Positions 553 to 13,560 of a DNA stretch of 13,729 nucleotides are shown one piece after another. Both the position numbers and the translations under genes were made by a program. Every line of letters begins with the position of its first letter. The stretch's first letter is position 1. Origin of the DNA: Myxococcota bacterium (GTDB lineage: Bacteria > Myxococcota > JACRCW01); NCBI GenBank assembly GCA_040752415.1, contig JBFMGU010000277.1:1-13729 (forward strand). The letters run 5' to 3'. The notes under the pieces were generated by a model. The model made no database searches, was not told the DNA's origin, and saw nothing but the letters and a program-made list of their open reading frames with translations.

Positions 553-1122
553 TCACCTGCCCGCCACACGCGCCATGCGCAGCGTCCGCCACGCGCGCCA
601 CGCGTAGTCCGCCGCCGCCGCCACGCCCAGCACCACCGCGGTGACGACGAGCGCCCCGGCCCACGCCGGCACCAGGACGTGCGCACTCACCGCCGCGAAC
701 TGCGCCACCGTGGTCAGCTTGCCCAGCGCCCGCGCGCGGTAGCGGAGCTCCTTCCGGCGGAAACGGGGCACTGCCAGCACCAGCAGGAACATGCTGAACA
801 CCAGCCAGTCCCGCGTGGCCAGCAGCGCCACCGTGGTCAGCGACAAGGTGCCCACGTGCAGCAGCATCAGCAGCACCGAGAGGACGAAGATCTTGTCGCA
901 GACGGGGTCCAGCCACGCACCCCGCTCCTCCGCGCGGGAGGGCTTGTGCGGCTCGTGCGCGCGCAGACGACGGGCCAACCAGCCATCCAGCAGGTCCGAG
1001 ACCGCCGCCGCGGCGAGGAAGCCCAGGAGCCAGCCAGTGTCCGTCGGACGCAGCCACACCAGCGCGGCCATCCCCACGCGGGACAGGCTCAGACCGTCGG
1101 GGATCCACTCGGAGGCGCGCAT
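553..1122 (-). CDS. CDP-alcohol phosphatidyltransferase family protein (PgsA/cardiolipin synthase-like)
   Basis: IPDGLSLSR N-terminus; signature DLLDGWLARR...GAWLDPVCDK; GKLTTVAQ motif; several hydrophobic segments. Start placed at ATG 1122 (MRASEWIP) rather than the ORF-track start at 1236. Confidence 0.9.
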   Translation of the reverse strand: MRASEWIPDGLSLSRVGMAALVWLRPTDTGWLLGFLAAAAVSDLLDGWLARRLRAHEPHKPSRAEERGAWLDPVCDKIFVLSVLLMLLHVGTLSLTTVALLATRDWLVFSMFLLVLAVPRFRRKELRYRARALGKLTTVAQFAAVSAHVLVPAWAGALVVTAVVLGVAAAADYAWRAWRTLRMARVAGR

Positions 1123-1232
1123 GAGGGCCGCATGACTGCCCCGCTGACGGATCCCTCCGCAACCCGCACTTGCCGCCTCCGCGGCCCATCTGGCTAGGAT
1201 GTTGTTCTCACTCGGGATTCCCCATGATGTGC

Positions 1233-1259
1233 GCAACTTCCATACCCATGGGCCGATAA
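1233..1259 (+). promoter_or_regulatory. Candidate sigma-28 (FliA/WhiG family) promoter
   Basis: Exact GCCGATAA at 1252-1259. GCAACTTC at 1233-1240 lies at the canonical 11-nt spacing (4/8 match to TAAAGTTT). It is about 30 nt upstream of the GTG at 1290, with the AGGAG RBS in between. Confidence 0.55.
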
Positions 1260-1289
1260 TCCCGCTCTCCTCTGTCAGGAGCGCCCACC

Positions 1290-2645
1290 GTGCCTGCCAT
1301 CTCGTCCCTGCCGCCCTCCCTCCAGTCGCTCGCCAACCGCATTGACGTCGACGCGCGTCTGGGAACCGCGGGGCGTGGCGACGGGCAGATCACCACCGCG
1401 GACATCCAGCGCGCGCGCGCTTCCGGCCTGTTCTCCTCCGACGAGCTGACCACGCTGGGCCAGTTGGAGCGCGCGCTGCAGAACGTGGTGGGCACGCCCA
1501 CGGGCGGCGCGGGGACCTCCAGCCCGTCCACCGGGACGTTCTCGCCGGTGGGCCTGCGCGCCGCGGTGACCGGCACCGACGGAGTTCCCGGGGCGCACGC
1601 GCAGAACGTTGACGTGCGCGGCGTGCGGCTGGAGCCCGGCAAGCCCTTCACGCTGCCCGGTGTCGACGTCAGCCGGCCCATTGCCTACGTCTCCGTCGAG
1701 ACGGTGCAGGGCGGGGCGGTGGAGGTGACGGTGGGGCGCGACCGCATGCGCACCCGCGCCGACGGCTCCTCGAGCAACTACGGCTTTGACCAGGCCACCC
1801 TGGGCGAGGTGACCCTCAAGGGCAGCGGTGAGCTCAAGAAGGTCACCGTGCACTACGCCGACCCCGCCACGCTGGGGAGCGCCGACTACTACTCCATCCC
1901 CGTCGGGAAGGATGGCATCAAGCACGGCGCCGCGCTCACGTTGCCCATCCCGTCGCACCGCCAGGGCATGGACATCCAGAACATCGACGTCAGCTTCCAC
2001 GCGCCGCTGCGCGAGTACGACGCCACGCGCAAGTGGGAGAACAAGCCCACCTACTGCACCTGGTACACCGACGACACGCGGCTGATGCGCAAGTTCGTGG
2101 ATCCCAACGCGGACAACGGCAACGCCGCGGAGATCGACAACGTCCACCCCTCCAATGACAACGACGCCGGCGTGCTGGCCAAGGCGGGGAAGACCATCCG
2201 CATCGTCGCGGAGAACGGCAAGATTCCCGCCGACGAGAACGCCATGACGGTGCAGTGGGTGCGCGTGACCTACAAGCCCAAGAACGCGGAGGTGAAGAGC
2301 TTCAGCTTCAAGGGCGCGCCGCTGGCCAACCGCGAGTGGGAAGGCAAGTGGGTTCCCGCCGGGCAGGCGCTGGCGATTGACGTGGATCCCACGCGCAGGA
2401 TCAGCCGCGTGGAGGTGCAGTGGTCCGACAAGCCCGACGACGTGGGCTACAACAGCCCCGGCAAGTGGGCCACCGGCAGCCTGTACCTGGACGGCAAGCC
2501 CGTCGGGAAACAACGCGAGCACGTGGGCAGCCCGGAGTGGCAGTTCTTCGACAACCTCCGCGGCGCGCAGGGCAGCAAGCTGGAGATCAAGGCGGAGAGC
2601 TGCGCCATCAAGTTCTTCGAGGTCAAGGTCTACTACGAGGGCTGA
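1290..2645 (+). CDS. Hypothetical protein (451 aa): EF-hand-like N-terminal module, Ser/Thr/Gly/Pro linker, three putative beta-sandwich repeats
   Basis: AGGAG RBS at 1277-1281 before GTG; strong GC3 bias; N-terminal RIDVDARLGTAGRGDGQITTADI; three segments ending VTVHY, VRVTY and VKVYY. No named family recognised. Confidence 0.85.
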   Translation: MPAISSLPPSLQSLANRIDVDARLGTAGRGDGQITTADIQRARASGLFSSDELTTLGQLERALQNVVGTPTGGAGTSSPSTGTFSPVGLRAAVTGTDGVPGAHAQNVDVRGVRLEPGKPFTLPGVDVSRPIAYVSVETVQGGAVEVTVGRDRMRTRADGSSSNYGFDQATLGEVTLKGSGELKKVTVHYADPATLGSADYYSIPVGKDGIKHGAALTLPIPSHRQGMDIQNIDVSFHAPLREYDATRKWENKPTYCTWYTDDTRLMRKFVDPNADNGNAAEIDNVHPSNDNDAGVLAKAGKTIRIVAENGKIPADENAMTVQWVRVTYKPKNAEVKSFSFKGAPLANREWEGKWVPAGQALAIDVDPTRRISRVEVQWSDKPDDVGYNSPGKWATGSLYLDGKPVGKQREHVGSPEWQFFDNLRGAQGSKLEIKAESCAIKFFEVKVYYEG

Positions 2646-2651
2646 GCGACC

Positions 2652-4406
2652 ATGACGATCCGGTCCGTTCCCAGCTTCTCCCCGACGCTGCGCCCGCACG
2701 CCGAGTGGATTGACCAGAACGTGGGCAACAAGGACGGCCAGCTCAGCGCGCAGGAGCTGGAGGCCTACAAGGGCAAGTTCCCCGACGCCACGATGTACGA
2801 GCCGCTCAAGGGCGAGCTGGGTACACCGGTGGCCGCGCCCGTTGCTCCGACGAGCACGGTGGGTGGCGCGGAGGGCATGCGGCTGGCGCAGATGGGCAGC
2901 GGCCTGGTGCAGCTGGGGGCCGCCGAGAAAACGCTCCCGCCCTCCAGCGTGCGTCCCAGCCTGCCGCTCCATGCGCTCACCAGGATTGGCGCGGAGCCCG
3001 CGGGTGAGGTGTTCCACCTGGACTCCTCGGGCGTGGCCACCATGGGCGTGCGTGCGCGGCAGATCGTCCATCCGCAGCATGGCCCTGGGACGGAGCTCGC
3101 GCTGCGGCTCACGTCGTTCCTGTCCCTGCAGACCACGTTGGGTCTCGCCGGTGGCCAGCTCCAGGCCACCCAGGTTCCCTTCCAGCTGGAGCGCGCGGAG
3201 TTCAAGGACGGCGCCACGGTGCTGGCCGCCGACGGAGCGTACGGTCCCACCACGCCCAACAAGCCCGGGGAGTGGGGCACCGCCAAGCCGCTGCAGGCCT
3301 GGCTCTTCGAGGAGAAGGGCAAGTACAGCCTGGAGTACATCCCGCCCAAGGAGAATCCGCAGGCCTACCGTGACCGCGTGCGCCTGCGCGTCTACGGCGC
3401 CACCGACGCGGAGCGTGCAGCCAACCTCAAGGCCGCGCTGAGCGCGCTGGGGGAGCCGGACCTCCTGGCCGACGCCGACGCGGTGCAGAGCCAGCGACTC
3501 CTGGCGTTGAGCGCGTTGCGCATGGTGGCGCCGGAGCGCGCCGAGGCGCTGGCCCAGGAGCTGGGCGACATCACGCTGGCCACGTTGCGGCAGGAGCTGG
3601 CGCAGGCGGGCATCGACGACGCGCGGCTGGCCGGCATGCGCCTGGAGGAGACGTTCCCGGGCACCATGGCGCCGGTGGACCCGGTGCTGGGCGAGAAGTA
3701 CGCGCAGCTGGGCGTCAAGACGGTGATGGTGGGCGTGCGGGAGCTGGAGTTCGCCGTCAAGATCCTCGGCAGCGACGGACTCATGAGCTCGCTGGAGCGT
3801 TACGGTCGTGGCCTGCACAAGGCCGGTGCCTCGCTCACCTCCGACGAGGCCAGCGGGGGCGCGGAGTACGCGTTCCTGCGCCTGGTGACGCCGCGGGCGG
3901 TGGAAGCGGCCACCCGCATCTCCAGCAGCTTTGGCGCGGGCAAGGTGCAGCTCATCAGCACCGGTGAGCAGATGAAGCAGATGCTCTCCCGCACCGACTG
4001 GCACGCCTATCCCAACGACTCCTTTGGCGTGACCGTCTCCCGCACCCAGGCGGAAGGGCCGGCGGCCGACGCCATTGCCAAGGCGGAGTACGACAAGCGC
4101 AAGAGCAAGTTCACCACGCGCCCCGTGCTGGAGGAGCTGGTGGCGCAGGTCAACGGCGACAAGCCCGCGCCCGGCGCGTGGAGCGGCAGCACCACCTCCT
4201 TCCAGCACAACAACGAGATCTGCTTCAAGAATGGCGTGCCGGCCGGCGCATTCACCCATGCCGTGGTTGCCGACGCCGCAACCCGGGAGCAGCTGGTGGG
4301 GGCGTTGAAGGCCGCGGGCATCACGCAGGTCCACGGCGTTCCCGTCGAGAACGCGGTGCTGGTGGCGTCCACGTGGAAGGACGTGGCCACCCAGCTGGGC
4401 TGGTGA
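2652..4406 (+). CDS. Hypothetical protein (584 aa): EF-hand-like N-terminus and putative ADP-ribosyltransferase-like C-terminal domain
   Basis: ATG 6 nt after the upstream stop; strong GC3 bias; N-terminal WIDQNVGNKDGQLSAQEL; C-terminal motifs ILGSDGLMSSLER, GASLTSDEASGGAEYAFLR, YPNDSFG and NNEICFKNGV. The CDS is secure; the function is inferred. Confidence 0.8.
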   Translation: MTIRSVPSFSPTLRPHAEWIDQNVGNKDGQLSAQELEAYKGKFPDATMYEPLKGELGTPVAAPVAPTSTVGGAEGMRLAQMGSGLVQLGAAEKTLPPSSVRPSLPLHALTRIGAEPAGEVFHLDSSGVATMGVRARQIVHPQHGPGTELALRLTSFLSLQTTLGLAGGQLQATQVPFQLERAEFKDGATVLAADGAYGPTTPNKPGEWGTAKPLQAWLFEEKGKYSLEYIPPKENPQAYRDRVRLRVYGATDAERAANLKAALSALGEPDLLADADAVQSQRLLALSALRMVAPERAEALAQELGDITLATLRQELAQAGIDDARLAGMRLEETFPGTMAPVDPVLGEKYAQLGVKTVMVGVRELEFAVKILGSDGLMSSLERYGRGLHKAGASLTSDEASGGAEYAFLRLVTPRAVEAATRISSSFGAGKVQLISTGEQMKQMLSRTDWHAYPNDSFGVTVSRTQAEGPAADAIAKAEYDKRKSKFTTRPVLEELVAQVNGDKPAPGAWSGSTTSFQHNNEICFKNGVPAGAFTHAVVADAATREQLVGALKAAGITQVHGVPVENAVLVASTWKDVATQLGW

Positions 4407-4413
4407 GCGCTGC

Positions 4414-4755
4414 ATGGCCGCCGCTCCCACGCTGGACCGCAACACCGTCTACTGGATCGAGGACCCGGCGGGCGTGCACCTCCCGCTCATTGCTGGCGAC
4501 GTGGAATACCGCGCCGACGCCCGGGAGCTGTGCTTCTACGACACGCAGCGCCCCCACGCCCTGCCCGCGCGCTTTGTCTCCGGCGACGAGCGGCGCGGCC
4601 TGACTTTCGAGGGACCGGAGCGCAAGATGGTGCTGCGCCGGTTGGACCGCGCCAGCTTTGACCGCGTGTTCCGGCCCGCCATTCCCGACGCGCCGCGCTT
4701 CACGTCCGACGACGAGCTGCAGGCCTTCTACCGGGACCTCATCCGCCAGATGTGA
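4414..4755 (+). CDS. Small hypothetical protein (113 aa), candidate immunity/chaperone partner
   Basis: ATG 7 nt after the upstream stop; GC3-rich codons; soluble, globular-looking sequence with no signal peptide or transmembrane segment. Confidence 0.75.
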   Translation: MAAAPTLDRNTVYWIEDPAGVHLPLIAGDVEYRADARELCFYDTQRPHALPARFVSGDERRGLTFEGPERKMVLRRLDRASFDRVFRPAIPDAPRFTSDDELQAFYRDLIRQM

Positions 4756-4843
4756 CGCACGTGGATTGTCCGCGCTGCAGCGCACCTGCGTGCGAGGGCG
4801 GCATCGTGTGGGCTCCGTCGATAGAACGCGACGGGAGGCCACC

Positions 4844-5560
4844 ATGCGAGCGTCCTCGGTGTCCATCAAGCTTCTCGTCGCCACCCTGCTCATTGCGCCG
4901 CTGGCGTTCGCGCAGAGCCCTGCTCCCGACACCACGTCCGCGACGCTGCGCACCCTCTCCGTGACGGGATACGGCGAGGTGATGGCCACCCCGGACCTGG
5001 CCACCGTGGCCGCGGGCGTGGAGACGCAGGCGCCCACCGCGGCGGAGGCGCTGGAGGAGAACAACCGGCGCATGGAGGCGCTGATTGCGGCGCTCACCGG
5101 CGCCGGGGTGGCGCGAGAGGACATCCAGACCGCGGGATTCTCGGTCTACCCGGTCTACGCCGAGGTGCTGCCCGGAATGCCGCCCAAGATCGACGGCTAC
5201 AACGTGAGCAACATCGTCGTGGTGAAGGTGCGCCGGTTGGATGGGCTGGGCGCGCTGCTGGATCAACTGGTGAACGCGGGCGCCAACACCATCCACGGCG
5301 TGGCTTTCGGGTTCAGCAATCCGCAGCAGATGATGGACCAGGCCCGGGAGCGCGCCATGGCGGACGCCGACCGCGTGGCGCAGCATCTCGCGCGGCTGGC
5401 CGGTGCGCAGGTGGAGATGGTGCTCAGCATCTCGGAGTCCACCATCCCGCCCATCTACGGTGGTCGGGGCTACGCCGCCGCGGACGCCGCCGCGGTGCCG
5501 GTGGAGCCCGGTCAGTCCGCCGTCTCCACGACGGTGCAGGTCACGTACACGCTGCGTTGA
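4844..5560 (+). CDS. SIMPL domain (DUF541, YggE/BP26-like) periplasmic protein
   Basis: GGGAGG RBS before ATG 4844; Sec signal peptide (LLVATLLIAPLAFA-Q); motifs TLSVTGYGEV.ATPDLA, DIQT, GYNVSN, GANTIHGVAF and ARERAMADA. Confidence 0.93.
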   Translation: MRASSVSIKLLVATLLIAPLAFAQSPAPDTTSATLRTLSVTGYGEVMATPDLATVAAGVETQAPTAAEALEENNRRMEALIAALTGAGVAREDIQTAGFSVYPVYAEVLPGMPPKIDGYNVSNIVVVKVRRLDGLGALLDQLVNAGANTIHGVAFGFSNPQQMMDQARERAMADADRVAQHLARLAGAQVEMVLSISESTIPPIYGGRGYAAADAAAVPVEPGQSAVSTTVQVTYTLR

Positions 5561-6109: not shown

Positions 6110-6196
6110 GGTCGTGGTGGCACGCGTCCTCCGTGGCGTGAGCACGCGTGAGTGGAGCGTTTGCTCCCGCGCGGCGGCCTTGTTAGGCACCACTCC

Positions 6197-6976
6197 GTGC
6201 GCACCGTCCAATGCACCCGCTACGTCACGCCCCTGCGCGAAGGTGGCTCGCTCCCCGCCATCGTCGAGGCGGATGACAACGGGATGTACGTGATGAAGCT
6301 GCGCGGGTCCGGTCAGGGGCCCAAGGCGCTCATTGCGGAGCTGGTGGGTGGAGAGCTGGCGCGTGCGTTGGGCCTGCGGGTCCCGGAGCTGGTGTTCATG
6401 CAGCTCGACCTGGCGCTGGCCAAGCAGGAACCCGACCCGGAAATCCAGGCGCTGCTCGAGGCCAGCGTGGGACTCAACCTGGCGCTGGACTACCTGCCCG
6501 GATCGGTGAGCTACGACCCGGCGGTCAATGTCCCGTTGTCGTCGGAGGAAGCGTCCGCGGTGGTGTGGCTGGATGCGCTCATCACCAACGTGGACCGCAC
6601 CGCGCGCAACACCAACATGCTGCTGTGGCATGAGAAGCTGTGGCTCATTGATCACGGCGCGGCGCTCTACATGCACCATCGCTGGGAGGGGTGGAGGGAG
6701 CACGCGGTGGCGTCGTTCCGGGCCATCAAGGACCACGTGTTGTTGCCCCGCGCCGACGCGTTGCTGGAGGCGGACGCCCGCCTGGCGCCGCGGGTGACCC
6801 CGGAGCTGCTGGCGCGGATCGTCGCGGACATCCCGGAGGCGTGGCTGCTGCAGGATGCCCCGTTCGCCACCGCCGCGGAACATCGTCAGGCGTACGTGGA
6901 TTACCTGTTGCTTCGTTGTTCGGTGTCGCGCACGTTCACGCAGGAGGCCAGGGATGCCCGCGCCAGCCGCGTTTAG
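6197..6976 (+). CDS. HipA-like Ser/Thr kinase (HipA_2-type)
   Basis: MRTV..TRYVTPLREGGSLP Gly loop; YVMK lysine; catalytic NVDRTARNTN; Mg-binding LIDHG. Start set at GTG 6197. Confidence 0.9.
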   Translation: MRTVQCTRYVTPLREGGSLPAIVEADDNGMYVMKLRGSGQGPKALIAELVGGELARALGLRVPELVFMQLDLALAKQEPDPEIQALLEASVGLNLALDYLPGSVSYDPAVNVPLSSEEASAVVWLDALITNVDRTARNTNMLLWHEKLWLIDHGAALYMHHRWEGWREHAVASFRAIKDHVLLPRADALLEADARLAPRVTPELLARIVADIPEAWLLQDAPFATAAEHRQAYVDYLLLRCSVSRTFTQEARDARASRV

Positions 6977-7367
6977 CTACGCCATCATCCGCGTGGTTCC
7001 GCGCGTGGAGCGCGGTGAGCTCATCAACGTGGGCGTGATCCTCTACAGCCACCCGCTGCGCTTCCTGCGTGCACGCGTGGAGCTGGATGAGGCGCGACTC
7101 AAGGCGCTGGCCCCGGACATCTCCGTCGACACCGTGCGCGCGCACCTGGACGCGTTCTGCAAGGTGTGTCACGGCGACGCCTCCGCGGGTGAGGTGGCGC
7201 GCATGCCCATCAGCCAACGCTTCCACTGGCTGGTGGCGCCGCGCAGCACCATCATCCAGACCTCTCCCACGCACGCCGGACTCTGCCAGGACGCTGAGCA
7301 GATGCTGGAGCACCTGATGGACACGCTGGTGCGGACCCCGCACGAGTCGAATGCCCGATCCATGTGA
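6954..7367 (+). CDS. DUF3037 domain protein
   Basis: AGGAGG at 6942-6947 before ATG 6954; motifs YAIIRVVPRVERGELINVGVIL and RFHWLVAPRSTIIQTSPTHAGLC; overlaps the kinase 3' end by 23 nt, the usual pairing. Confidence 0.9.
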   Translation: MPAPAAFSYAIIRVVPRVERGELINVGVILYSHPLRFLRARVELDEARLKALAPDISVDTVRAHLDAFCKVCHGDASAGEVARMPISQRFHWLVAPRSTIIQTSPTHAGLCQDAEQMLEHLMDTLVRTPHESNARSM

Positions 7368-10535: not shown

Positions 10536-11807
10536 TCAGAACTGGTGCGCCTCGGTGGACTCGTGCAGCGCCAGCGTGCTGGCCGTGCCGCCGCTGATCA
10601 CCTGCGCCACCTCGTCGAAGTAGCCGGTGCCCACCTCGTGCTGGTGGCGCGTGGCGGTGTAGCCATCCTTCTCGCTGGCAAACTCCGCCTGCTGCAGCTT
10701 GGTGTACGCGGCCATGCCGTGGTCACGGTAGCCGCGCGCCAGCTCGAACATGCCGTGGTTGAGCGAGTGGAAGCCCGCCAGGGTCACGAACTGGAACTTG
10801 TAGCCCATGGCGCCCAGCTCGCGCTGGAACCTGGCAATGGTGGCGTCGTCCAGGTGCTTCTTCCAGTTGAACGAGGGCGAGCAGTTGTACGCCAGCAGCT
10901 TCCCGGGGAAGCGCGCCTGGATGGCCTCCGCGAACTCCGCCGCCTCCTTGAGGTCCGGCGTGGAGGTCTCACACCAGATGAGGTCCGCGTAGGGCGCGTA
11001 GGCCAGGCCGCGCGCAATGGCCGCCTTCAGCCCACCCTTGATGCGGAAGAAGCCCTCCGGGGTCCGCTCCGGGCTGGCAATGAACTCGCGGTCGCGCTCG
11101 TCCACGTCGGAGGTGATGAGCTGCGCGCTGTTGGCGTCGGTACGCGCGATCAGCAGCGTGGGCACGCCCATGACGTCCGCGGCCAGGCGCGCCGCGGTCA
11201 GCGTGCGGATGAATTGGCTGGTGGGCACCAGCACCTTGCCGCCCAGGTGGCCGCACTTCTTCTCGCTGGCCAGCTGGTCCTCGAAGTGCACGCCGGAGGC
11301 GCCCGCCTCGATCAGCGACTTCATCAGCTCATAGGCGTTGAGTGGTCCGCCGAATCCGGCCTCCGCGTCGGCAATCAGCGGCGCGAACCAGTAGCGCTCG
11401 TTCTTGCCCTCGCTGTGGTCGATCTGGTCGGCGCGCTGCAGGGCCTGGTTGATGCGCTGCACCACGTGCGGGACGCTGTTGACGGGATAGAGGCTCTGGT
11501 CCGGGTACATGTGGCCGGAGATGTTGGCGTCGGCCGCCACCTGCCAGCCGCTGACGTAGATGGCCTTCAGGCCCGCCCGCACCATCTGCACGGCCTGGTT
11601 GCCGGTCAGCGCGCCCAGCGCCGCCACGTACGGCTCCTGGTGCAGCAGGTCCCACAACCGACGCGCGCCCAGGTCCGCCAGCGTGTGCTGGATCCGGATG
11701 CTGCCGCGCAGGCGCTCCACGTCCTTCTGTGAGTAGGGGCGCACCACGCCGTCCCAGCGGCGGGCGGGAAGCTGCGTGACGAACTCATCCTTCTTGGCGA
11801 CAACCAT
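10536..11807 (-). CDS. aceA: Isocitrate lyase
   Basis: Catalytic KKCGH; motifs [39 protein letters not shown] and [11 protein letters not shown]. Start at ATG 11807 with GGGAG upstream; 423 aa. Confidence 0.98.
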
Positions 11808-11866
11808 GACTTCTCCCGTCGTGACCAGGCGCGGGTGCAAGGGCCCCGGCGTGGTCGGTTGAAAGA

Positions 11867-13429
11867 TCAATCCTGCAGGCGCTCGTAGGCGGGCAGGGTG
11901 AGGAACTCGGTGAACTCGTCGGCGGTGCACAGCTTCACGAACAGCTCGCGCGCCTCCGTGAAGCGTCCGCGCGTCAAGTCCATGGCGCCCATCTCCTCCT
12001 GGACCACGGTGAGGAACTTCTCGCGCGTGAGCCTTCCTCCGTCGGAGAGCAGCGCGCCGTGGTGCAGCCACTGCCAGATCTGCGCGCGACAGATCTCCGC
12101 GGTGGCCGCGTCCTCCATGAGGTGGAACAAGGGCACGCAGCCCTGGCCGCGCAGCCAGGCTTCCACGTAGCGGATGCCCACGCGCACGTTGTGGCGCAAC
12201 CCCTCCATGGTCCGCGCGCCCTCCGGCACCTTGAGCAGGTCCAGCGCGGTCACCTGCACGTCGTCACGCAGGCGGTGGAGCTGGTTGGGGCCCTTCAGGT
12301 GCGCGTCAAAGATCTCACGCGCCACCGGCACCAGGCCGGGGTGGGCCACCCAGGTTCCGTCGTGACCGTCGGTGACCTCGCGCAGCTTGTCCGCCCGGAC
12401 CTTCTGCAGCGCCGCCTCGTTGGCCGCGGCGTCGTCCTTGATGGGGATCTGCGCCGCCATCCCGCCCATGGCGTGCACGCCCCGACGGTGACAGGTCTTG
12501 ATGAGCAGCTGCGTGTACGCGCGCATGAACGGCTGGGTCATGGTGACCAGCGCGCGGTCGGGCATCACCGCGTGGGGATCCTGACGGGTCTTCTTGATGA
12601 AGCTGAAGATGTAATCCCAACGGCCGCAGTTCAGGCCCGCGGAGTGCTCGCGCAGCTCGGACAGGATCTCGTCCATCTCGAAGGCCGCGGGCAGCGTCTC
12701 GATGAGCACGGTGGCCTTGATGGTCCCGCGCGGGATGCCGAGCTTCTCCTGCGCAAAGACGAAGACGTCATTCCACCAGCGCGCCTCCCGGTGGCCCTCC
12801 AGCTTGGGCAGGTAGAAGTACGGGCCGGTGCCGCGGGAGAGCTGCTCGCGGGCGTTGTGGAAGAGGAAGAGGCCGAAGTCCCACAGGGAGGCGGGCACCG
12901 CGGCGCCGTCGAGCGTGGCGTGTCGCTCGACGAGATGCAGGCCGCGCGGGCGCACCAGCAGCACCGCGGTCTGCTGCGCCAGCTCATAGACCTTGCCGGT
13001 GTCCGGCGCGACGAAGCGGATGGTGCGTCGCACCGCGTCGTGGAGGTTCACCTGGCCCAGCACCACGTTCTCGAAGGTGGGGGAGAGCGAATCCTCGAAG
13101 TCCGCCATGAAGACGTTGGCGCCGCTGTTGAGCGCGTTCACCACCATCTTGCGGTCCACCGGCCCGGTGATCTCCACGCGACGATCCAGGAGGTCCGCCG
13201 GCAGCGGCGCCACCTTCCACCCGCCTTCCCGGATGCCGCGCGTCTCGGCGAGGAAGTCGGGGCGCCAGCCGGAGTCCCACTGGGCCTGCCGGACGCGTCG
13301 CGCCGCCAGCAGCTCGCGCAGCGCCGGACCAAACCGGGTGGCCAGCTCCGCCACGAACCCCAGCGCGTCCTCACCCAGGATCCCCGCCGCGTCCGCCGGC
13401 ACCGCCCCCGTCAACTGAATCCGCGCCAT
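11867..13429 (-). CDS. aceB: Malate synthase A
   Basis: Motifs [49 protein letters not shown] and [18 protein letters not shown] before ATG 13429; 520 aa. Confidence 0.98.
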
Positions 13430-13440
13430 CCCGTGCCTCC

Positions 13441-13560
13441 AAGTCACGGTTGTCAAAAGTACACGCCGTGAATCCAGAGGCAATAGACTCAGTGATTTCA
13501 GGTGGTTAAGCGAGTGTATGGATGTCAATGACACGATGTGAATGTGTCAATCATTGTCAA
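13441..13560 (-). promoter_or_regulatory. aceBA upstream regulatory region with repeated TGTCAA/TTGACA hexamers
   Basis: AT-rich island. TGTCAA at 13451, 13523, 13545 and 13555; variant TGTGAA at 13537; palindrome TGTCA-A-TGACA at 13523-13533. Confidence 0.65.

Follow-up and report, generated by a model that had tools for sequence, protein, structure and literature searches.

The DNA analysed here, referred to below as the window, is a stretch of 13,729 nucleotides (nt) from a Myxococcota bacterium (assembly GCA_040752415.1, contig JBFMGU010000277.1, forward strand). It contains three plus-strand genes, named A, B, and C in this work, which were delimited with the G+C content at third codon positions (GC3) and a listing of open reading frames (ORFs). 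The proteins encoded by A and B share a small N-terminal leader related to the EF-hand, and this leader is the subject of our analysis. The genes and their leader regions are laid out as follows (aa, amino acids).

1277..1281, plus strand: AGGAG ribosome-binding site, read from the sequence, 8 nt upstream of the GTG start of gene A
1290..2645, plus strand: gene A, 451 aa, GTG start; leader, disordered linker, and all-beta body resembling lectins and carbohydrate-binding modules (CBMs); GC3 0.94
1290..1493, plus strand: A-type leader module, aa 1-68; helix 9-20, expanded loop, helix 36-44, and helix 50-68 (AlphaFold2 model, DSSP assignment)
1344..1403, plus strand: expanded EF-hand-like loop of A, D19-V-D21 ... 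D31-G-Q-I-T-T-A-D38
1494..1592, plus strand: disordered linker of A, aa 69-101; rich in Pro, Thr, Ser, Gly, and Ala (fraction 0.77), with a predicted local distance difference test score (pLDDT) below 50 at residues 68-101
2652..4406, plus strand: gene B, 584 aa, ATG start; leader, linker, alpha/beta domain, and C-terminal DarT-like region; GC3 0.92
2652..2825, plus strand: B-type leader module, aa 1-58; the leader hidden Markov model (HMM) matches aa 4-58 at 72.6 bits
2712..2756, plus strand: EF-hand-like loop of B, D21-Q-N-V-G-N-K-D-G-Q-L-S-A-Q-E35
4414..4755, plus strand: gene C, 113 aa; candidate immunity or antidote protein of B

Homologues of gene A use the equivalent start residue, in agreement with the GTG start. 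The ATG of gene B lies 6 nt past the stop of gene A, and gene C starts 7 nt past the stop of gene B (an 8-nt step from 4406 to 4414). None of the three proteins has a family match in Pfam, NCBIfam, or PADLOC, and the sole trace in these scans is a subthreshold AbiEi_1 match in B (E = 0.084). A promoter and terminator scan of positions 1000-5000 returned 0 promoters and 0 terminators.

A reading made from the sequence alone (hereafter the sequence-only reading) had proposed a shared N-terminal leader on two otherwise unrelated neighbours, and the N-termini and linkers that it quoted are present at their places in the checked translations. The bodies are indeed unrelated: A is all-beta over residues 104-451, B is alpha/beta over residues 100-584, and whole-protein BLASTP of A against B gives an N-terminal alignment at E = 3 only, with no other similarity. 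Because this value is not significant, profile methods were needed. Smith-Waterman comparison of the first 40-50 residues, a region picked after the fact, gives a score of 40 against 17.5 +/- 3.5 for shuffles, with 0 of 2000 shuffles reaching 40; for longer stretches the score is reached by 3 of 2000 shuffles (70 residues) and 5 of 2000 (85 residues). The two N-termini also form the top pair among all 50-residue windows of A and B, in both directions. The sound test of homology is the profile-profile comparison, in which hhalign aligned 10 A-type leaders with 5 B-type leaders (from 4 proteins, plus the second copy in P0021) over 36 columns with a probability of 89.9%, an E value of 1.7e-6, and a score of 34.2. 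In the controls, the reversed target scored 10.6 and 60 column-shuffled targets scored 9.2 +/- 2.0, with a maximum of 17.2. The shared leader is borne out by these controls; the similarity exceeds every shuffle in hhalign and, for the first 40-50 residues, in Smith-Waterman, and is not significant in whole-protein BLASTP.

One could still read the resemblance as chance or convergence, with a short DGxI..E motif in each protein and no shared module, and the BLASTP value and the pairwise identity of only ~23% would suit that view. However, the hhalign score falls outside the range of its shuffles, and the alignment extends from the entering helix through the loop and exiting helix as far as the third helix. 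A single profile finds both leader types end to end, whereas ordinary EF-hand proteins match only profile positions ~28-43, and in several stretches; moreover, the module stands at residue 1 in A and B alike. Given the profile statistics, we exclude this explanation as scarcely credible. A recent duplication of the two leaders was likewise rejected, as their identity is only ~23%. A joint MAFFT alignment of 14 leaders (A1) aligns end to end, and the leaders of A and B are, with high confidence, homologous copies of one portable, EF-hand-derived module of ~60 residues.

In both proteins the module consists of a helix, an expanded EF-hand-like loop, and two further helices, followed by a disordered linker that is 58-77% Pro, Thr, Ser, Gly, and Ala. 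The entering helix reads 'LPPxLxxLAxRID' in A and 'FSPxLxPHAxWID' in B. The leader HMM covers aa 2-65 of A at 86.7 bits, and in the AlphaFold2 model of A the pLDDT of the leader is 85-93 for its helices and 70 for the loop block, falling to ~30 in the disordered stretch 68-101. For B, the model places helices at 16-24, 33-42, and 44-56, the same three-helix pattern as in A, with low confidence because only 4 of the 9 alignment rows carry the leader.

The sequence-only reading had also suggested that the leader is portable, and had proposed a leader-profile search for other carriers. The A1 profile was searched, at E <= 1e-3, in a set of 1.84 billion sequences, in which ~15 billion proteins clustered at 50% are represented by one member per cluster. 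The search returned 75 matches, and 11 of these have a near-full-length module, i.e. at least 46 of the 66 profile positions and a clearly significant domain score upon local rescoring. The 11 representatives are listed below; in all but one of them, the module begins within residues 1-20.

P0018, P0006, P0012, P0002: representatives of the A and B families with the full module
P0031, P0043: broken B and A genes with the full module
P0033, 267 aa: module and ADP-ribosyltransferase (ART); Pfam ART match of 28 bits, above cutoff, and XopAI-like match below cutoff
P0030 and P0034, 424 aa and 488 aa: three tandem modules and an ATLF-type HExxH metalloprotease
P0046, 756 aa: homologue of A over its full length, with leader (26% identity across A residues 1-450, E = 1e-23), extended by a DUF3626 domain
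P0081, 347 aa: module and ROK-like domain

The matches have diverse C-terminal domains, which favours a portable module, and five unrelated contexts have the leader at residue 1, namely the A family with its toxin-fused member, the B family, a C3/XopAI-like ART, ATLF metalloproteases, and a ROK-like protein. DUF3626 is a domain of Salmonella SopF, according to an excerpt of PMC6682159, and an excerpted review describes SopF as an ADP-ribosyltransferase that acts on ATP6V0C (PMC10333799).

Copy number varies, with 1, 2, or 3 modules in tandem. Specifically, P0021, an orthologue of B, has a tandem pair at residues 5-58 and 62-112, and the tandem loops lie at residues 29, 98, and 170 of P0030 and at 35, 133, and 207 of P0034. 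In P0034, the loop of module three comes close to a canonical EF loop, with the 12 residues N-G-N-G-D-G-V-L-D-T-R-E. A word-indexed homologue search with the leader alignment among longer proteins gave 10 matches, all known A or B members, and no new architecture. P0029 (908 aa), also returned by the representative search, is built of repeats; it matches the first helix of the leader ('LQTLPPSIKPLTQRV') in 16 short stretches and has a Pfam match of Kp4 killer-toxin-like type. A relationship to the module is improbable.

The remaining 64 matches of the representative search bear on the origin of the module. They align in several stretches, all confined to the loop and the exiting helix of the profile, and 53 of them carry at least one canonical EF loop, which is why we place the module as an EF-hand derivative. 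The other 11 are repeat proteins, e.g. a cadherin-repeat giant, and P0049, P0052, and P0085 were left out of the full-module set as weak partial matches inside multi-EF-hand proteins. The canonical multi-EF-hand lipoproteins P0032 and P0049 resemble XopAW and lanmodulin at scores below cutoff. Unit by unit they can be aligned with the leader profile, and their 'ELPPRMQERAxxID' entering and 'DQARASGVL' exiting helices match the A leader almost motif for motif. Nearly all matches of the leader profile to PDB sequences are EF-hand proteins (CaBP, calmodulins, and polcalcins), with marginal E values of 0.003-0.9, and Pfam EF-hand_5 touches 4 of the 14 leaders (best E = 0.049). A structure-Atlas search with the leader alone gave scores of up to 0.81 (lead level), mostly to EF-hand clusters and once to a NolX/PopF1 cluster at 0.79; we give it no weight past an EF-hand lead.

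A canonical EF loop, in its PROSITE-type pattern, has 12 residues with ligands at positions 1, 3, 5, 7, 9, and 12. The A loop keeps positions 5, 6, 8, 9, and 12, with 1 and 3 pushed upstream by an insertion. In the B loop, positions 3, 5, 6, 8, 9, and 12 are canonical, position 1 is Val, and an Asp stands two residues before it. Across 12 A-type and 12 B-type modules the loop positions are conserved as follows.

Position 1 (D/N/S/T ligand): A-type 2/12; B-type 2/12
Position 3 (ligand): A-type ~2/12; B-type 12/12 (N/D)
Position 5 (D/N): A-type 12/12; B-type 12/12 (D)
Position 6 (G): A-type 12/12; B-type 11/12
Position 8 (I/L/V): A-type 12/12; B-type 12/12 (L)
Position 9 (S/T/D): A-type 11/12; B-type 12/12
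Position 12 (E/D): A-type 11/12; B-type 12/12

The claim that the second half of the loop matches EF-hand positions 5-12 holds across the family, with positions 5, 6, 8, and 12 kept in 23-24 of the 24 modules. So does the claim that the first Asp is displaced by an insertion, as alignment of the leader profile with canonical EF-hand units leaves a 7-residue gap in the loop. B-type modules have D-x-N just upstream of EF position 1, and from their ligand residues these loops could plausibly still bind Ca2+; for A-type loops, Ca2+ binding looks doubtful. Each module has one loop and three helices and no paired EF-hands (tandem modules occur only in P0021, P0030, and P0034). The module thus derives from the EF-hand without being a canonical member: its loop is expanded, it is a single unit, and it has an additional helix.

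A Sec or lipoprotein signal was rejected as an identity for the leader, which lacks a hydrophobic core. By Kyte-Doolittle hydropathy, applied with no dedicated predictor, a signal-peptide h-region is absent from the first ~45 residues of all 11 leader proteins. The maximum 10-residue hydropathy of these proteins does not exceed 0.72, whereas the lipoprotein-type controls P0032 and P0049 reach 2.74 and 2.76. Judging by sequence, the module heads a polymorphic-toxin-like set of Myxococcaceae-type proteins that lack a Sec signal.

Family A has 17 members including the window protein (10 with the leader, 6 without, and 1 N-terminal fragment), and family B has 9, again including the window protein (4 with the leader, twice in tandem in P0021, and 5 with unrelated N-termini). 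The leader-less orthologues are P0009, P0010, P0015-P0017, and P0019 in the A family and P0023-P0027 in the B family. Their N-termini are of like length and of low complexity, rich in Pro, Ala, Gln, and Ser, which raises the question of whether they are an alternative to the leader. Besides the window, seven loci were obtained from one scan of species-representative genomes with family A, all of them in Myxococcaceae metagenome-assembled genomes.

Window: A-B-C; leader in A, leader in B
L001: A-B-C; leader in A, none in B
L007: A-B-C; leader in A, none in B
L003: A-B-C; no leader in A, none in B
L004, L005, and L006: annexin-ART gene followed by a short A; leader in A, B not applicable
L002: A alone; leader in A, B not applicable

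A-B-C is a conserved, tightly packed operon found at 4 of the 8 loci, and a homologue of gene C lies directly past B in all 4 loci that contain B (window, L001, L003, and L007). Flanking genes are different at every locus. Gene A adjoins a toxin-like gene in 7 of the 8 loci, and in P0046 the A homologue is fused to a toxin-type domain. At L002, A stands between a divergent tetratricopeptide-repeat/cyclic-nucleotide-binding gene and a histidine kinase gene. At L004-L006, the short A consists of the leader and the C-terminal half, and lies directly downstream of a large gene whose product carries annexin repeats and an ADP-ribosyltransferase exoenzyme domain.

L004:6514-9429, plus strand: annexin-ART gene directly upstream of the short A homologue
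L005:6089-9778, plus strand: annexin-ART gene directly upstream of the short A homologue
L006:7055-9781, plus strand: annexin-ART gene directly upstream of the short A homologue

In the products of these genes, an N-terminus rich in Pro and Ala is joined by annexin repeats, a hydrophobic stretch rich in Ala and Gly, and an ART domain of R-S-E type at the C-terminus (ADPrib_exo_Tox; XopAI-like). These products are bacterial fusions of annexin and toxin, which are rare outside eukaryotes. A rival reading gives the module a role in or on the target cell, either as a Ca2+-sensing switch or as a binder of a host factor or membrane. Once delivery has taken place, it would activate or localise the toxin domain, and its function would parallel that of the annexin repeats. 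The XopAI-like ART is headed by annexin repeats at L004-L006 and by the leader in P0033, both heads are Ca2+-site folds, and bacterial fusions of annexin with toxin domains have been proposed to aid delivery, as far as the excerpted source goes (PMC3894181). However, the nontoxic A carries the module too, a strict position at the extreme N-terminus would be unneeded for such a role, and ligand positions 1 and 3 are lost in A-type loops. We consider an action within the target cell quite unlikely.

The bodies behind the two leaders were assessed with AlphaFold2 models.

1593..2645, plus strand: beta-sandwich body of A, aa 102-451; all-beta by DSSP (104-451)
3654..4385, plus strand: DarT-like region of B, aa 335-578; candidate ADP-ribosyltransferase toxin domain

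The model of A, built from 17 sequences, has a mean pLDDT of 84 and a predicted template modelling (pTM) score of 0.72, and its body is probably made of three jelly-roll/CBM-like domains. Foldseek against the PDB gave 124 matches at E <= 1e-3, among them tandem CBM51, malectin-like ANX1, F-lectin, CUB, and viral jelly-roll capsids, with template modelling (TM) scores that are low, as one would expect of a multidomain query. These folds suggest a lectin-like body that may serve in binding. The model of B, built from 9 sequences, has a pLDDT of 70.5 and a pTM of 0.72, and its best Foldseek matches in the PDB are the DarT structures 8baq and 7omv (probability 0.97-0.98, TM by target 0.51-0.53, E ~0.04). 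In the structure Atlas, an independent model of B places residues 335-578 on DarT clusters (TM by row 0.74), with a lead to the OspC family at 0.86. As a lead rather than proof, the models indicate that B ends in a DarT-like ADP-ribosyltransferase fold. Family profiles of A and B gave 0 matches to PDB sequences at E <= 1. Gene C, in turn, would encode the immunity or antidote protein of B.

DarT is a component of toxin-antitoxin systems, and the same genes could be read as involving no export at all: B and C would form an intracellular DarT-type toxin-antitoxin or defence pair, with A as accessory sensor and the leader as an EF-hand that has a regulatory role in the cytoplasm. The DarT-like fold of B, the small gene downstream of it, the missing signal peptide, and a HipA_2/DUF3037 pair nearby in the window are all consistent with this. 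By contrast, none of the 7 proteins tested matches PADLOC, and C (113 aa, no family) is not the size of a DarG macrodomain. The C3/XopAI-like ART, the ATLF protease, the SopF-type domain, and the annexin-ART neighbour are typical of exported toxins, as are the lectin-like body and the Pro/Thr-rich linkers. A purely intracellular system is, in our view, very unlikely.

As to function, the sequence-only reading had proposed a secretion, chaperone-binding, or Ca2+-dependent targeting tag. We favour the view that the module is a trafficking or delivery head of the proteins that carry it, with a probability of about one half, and that A is a carrier or adaptor, because the RIX precedent has the same layout as A-B-C. 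RIX is a small N-terminal domain of polymorphic type VI secretion system (T6SS) effectors in Vibrio; excerpts of its description (PMC10435454) place it also on nontoxic adaptors, which come first in three-gene operons before an ADP-ribosyltransferase-like effector and an immunity gene. Under a delivery role, a Sec-independent export or delivery route would recognise the module, and through its EF-loop it may stay inert at the low Ca2+ of the cytoplasm and be kept folded once outside the cell. The A-B-C genes would then form an adaptor-toxin-immunity operon, in which A may be a lectin-like carrier or binding component, B a toxin of ADP-ribosyltransferase fold, and C the antidote of B.

Several observations weigh against a delivery head. 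The leader is dispensable in orthologues (6 A and 5 B proteins are without it), and it is found in A only at L001 and L007 and in neither protein at L003, while A at L002 has no toxin neighbour. Tandem copies, 2 in P0021 and 3 in P0030 and P0034, are more in keeping with a binding module than with an export signal, where they would be unusual. Genes of secretion systems (T6SS, the type III and type I secretion systems, and Tad) were looked for with Pfam within 10 kb at the window and the 7 other loci, and none was found; nor does a chaperone gene stand beside any of the 8 loci. The Ca2+ element is uncertain for A-type loops because ligands at positions 1 and 3 are each present in only ~2 of 12. 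No leader reaches a Pfam EF-hand cutoff (best EF-hand_5, 23.1 vs 25.9 bits, in P0030), and the canonical EF-loop pattern has 0 leader matches, the one match in P0006 possibly sitting outside the leader. Finally, Foldseek of B against the PDB has 0 matches at E <= 1e-3, so the DarT likeness is not significant by E value.

The module could instead serve Ca2+-dependent docking or oligomerisation, in which leaders would pair with one another as homo- or hetero-pairs. Leader-bearing toxins (B, ART, and ATLF) would then be assembled on carrier A outside the cell, at high Ca2+, in the manner of dockerins. EF-hands normally act in pairs and a lone EF-hand needs a partner; each module has one EF-like loop, copy numbers of 1, 2, and 3 suggest avidity or pairing, both neighbours in the window carry the module, and B-type loops keep 5 of 6 ligand positions. 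However, A-B-C is kept where the leader is in A only (L001 and L007) or in neither protein (L003), P0046 has a leader although carrier and toxin domain are already fused, and 0 of 14 A1 members match Dockerin_1 at E <= 10. Docking is unlikely on balance.

A bolder form of the delivery reading, which we regard as speculative and improbable, takes the leader as the address label of an unrecognised Myxococcaceae effector repertoire that would be passed on to a killing machine which depends on contact or on vesicles. Toxins that have no label would be ferried by lectin-like carriers of the kind of A, the needleless T3SS*/Kil system (T3SS, type III secretion system) would be one candidate machine, and Ca2+ on the expanded loop would switch the module between an export-competent and a folded state. 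If this were true, a leader HMM would list the cargo of the killing machine directly from genomes. Myxobacteria kill prey with secreted and contact-delivered proteins, and the cargo of several of their delivery systems is, to our knowledge, poorly defined.

The surroundings of A-B-C are ordinary chromosomal genes in DNA of ~68-71% G+C, and the window genes matched only Myxococcaceae-type metagenome-assembled genomes. The neighbours include genes for a CDP-alcohol phosphatidyltransferase, a SIMPL/DUF541 protein, a SnoaL-like protein, HipA_2 with DUF3037, a TetR protein, a metallo-beta-lactamase-fold protein, an Asp/Glu racemase, isocitrate lyase, and malate synthase. The HipA_2 kinase-like gene (6152-6976, plus strand) overlaps the DUF3037 gene (6855-7367, plus strand), and the two may be a toxin-antitoxin-like pair, with no tie to A-B-C as far as seen. 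The listed SIMPL/DUF541 ORF (4658-5560, plus strand) opens with TTG inside gene C; its Pfam match begins at residue 100, and its real start therefore probably lies after 4755. Genes for isocitrate lyase and malate synthase (glyoxylate shunt) are adjacent on the minus strand, at 10536-12071 and 11867-13534, and these ORFs overlap by ~200 nt, probably because the true isocitrate lyase start is further downstream.

The module resembles several known systems and differs from each. It is absent from Pfam and NCBIfam, and the literature, as judged by listings and abstracts, yielded no account of myxobacterial toxins headed by an EF-hand-like N-terminal module. According to excerpts of PMC12992299, a Salmonella T6SS effector candidate has an internal EF-hand, which is not the leader module. 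With the EF-hand proper, the module shares the helix-loop-helix architecture. It differs in a loop that is longer by 3 residues (B-type) to ~8 residues (A-type), in being a single unit with a third helix and no pair, and in its place at the extreme N-terminus of toxin-type proteins without a signal peptide.

Dockerins offer another likeness, being EF-hand-derived modules of Ca2+-loop and helix that come with Pro/Thr-rich linkers and diverse catalytic domains. A dockerin has two loop-helix repeats, is usually C-terminal, and docks enzymes on a scaffold through a cohesin partner. The leader, by contrast, has a single loop per module and sits N-terminally, no cohesin-like gene was seen here, and none of the 14 leaders matched Pfam Dockerin_1 at E <= 10.

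The marker domains MIX, FIX, and RIX gave a sequence handle for T6SS effectors in vibrios. Like them, the module is a small N-terminal domain ahead of diverse C-terminal toxin domains, and its tails are ART, ATLF, DUF3626, DarT-like, CBM-like, and ROK domains. The likeness to RIX extends to the gene order, with a nontoxic beta-domain protein first, then an ADP-ribosyltransferase-like effector and a small immunity gene, as the excerpts of PMC10435454 have it. RIX differs in being arginine-rich and not EF-hand-like, with no sequence relation to the module shown; the module also occurs in tandem copies, and no T6SS gene is linked to its loci. An N-terminal module on ADP-ribosyltransferases, lethal-factor-like proteases, and lectin-like carriers would give a handle for finding effectors. 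The recruitment of a lone EF-hand with an expanded loop as a modular head also makes Ca2+-gated export or assembly directly testable.

Polymorphic toxin systems combine an N-terminal trafficking domain, a variable C-terminal toxin, and a downstream immunity gene. The proteins studied here show a constant head with varying tails (ART, ATLF, DUF3626, and DarT-like), a toxin that is either fused to the carrier (P0046) or separate (B), and a small gene downstream of B. In addition, annexin-ART genes adjoin the short A homologues, which recalls the annexin-toxin fusions described in excerpts of PMC3894181. They differ from such systems in that the head is a new EF-hand-derived family, and the immunity role of C is one that we infer. 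The module belongs near two known kinds of domain, the EF-hand derivatives and the N-terminal marker domains of polymorphic effectors.

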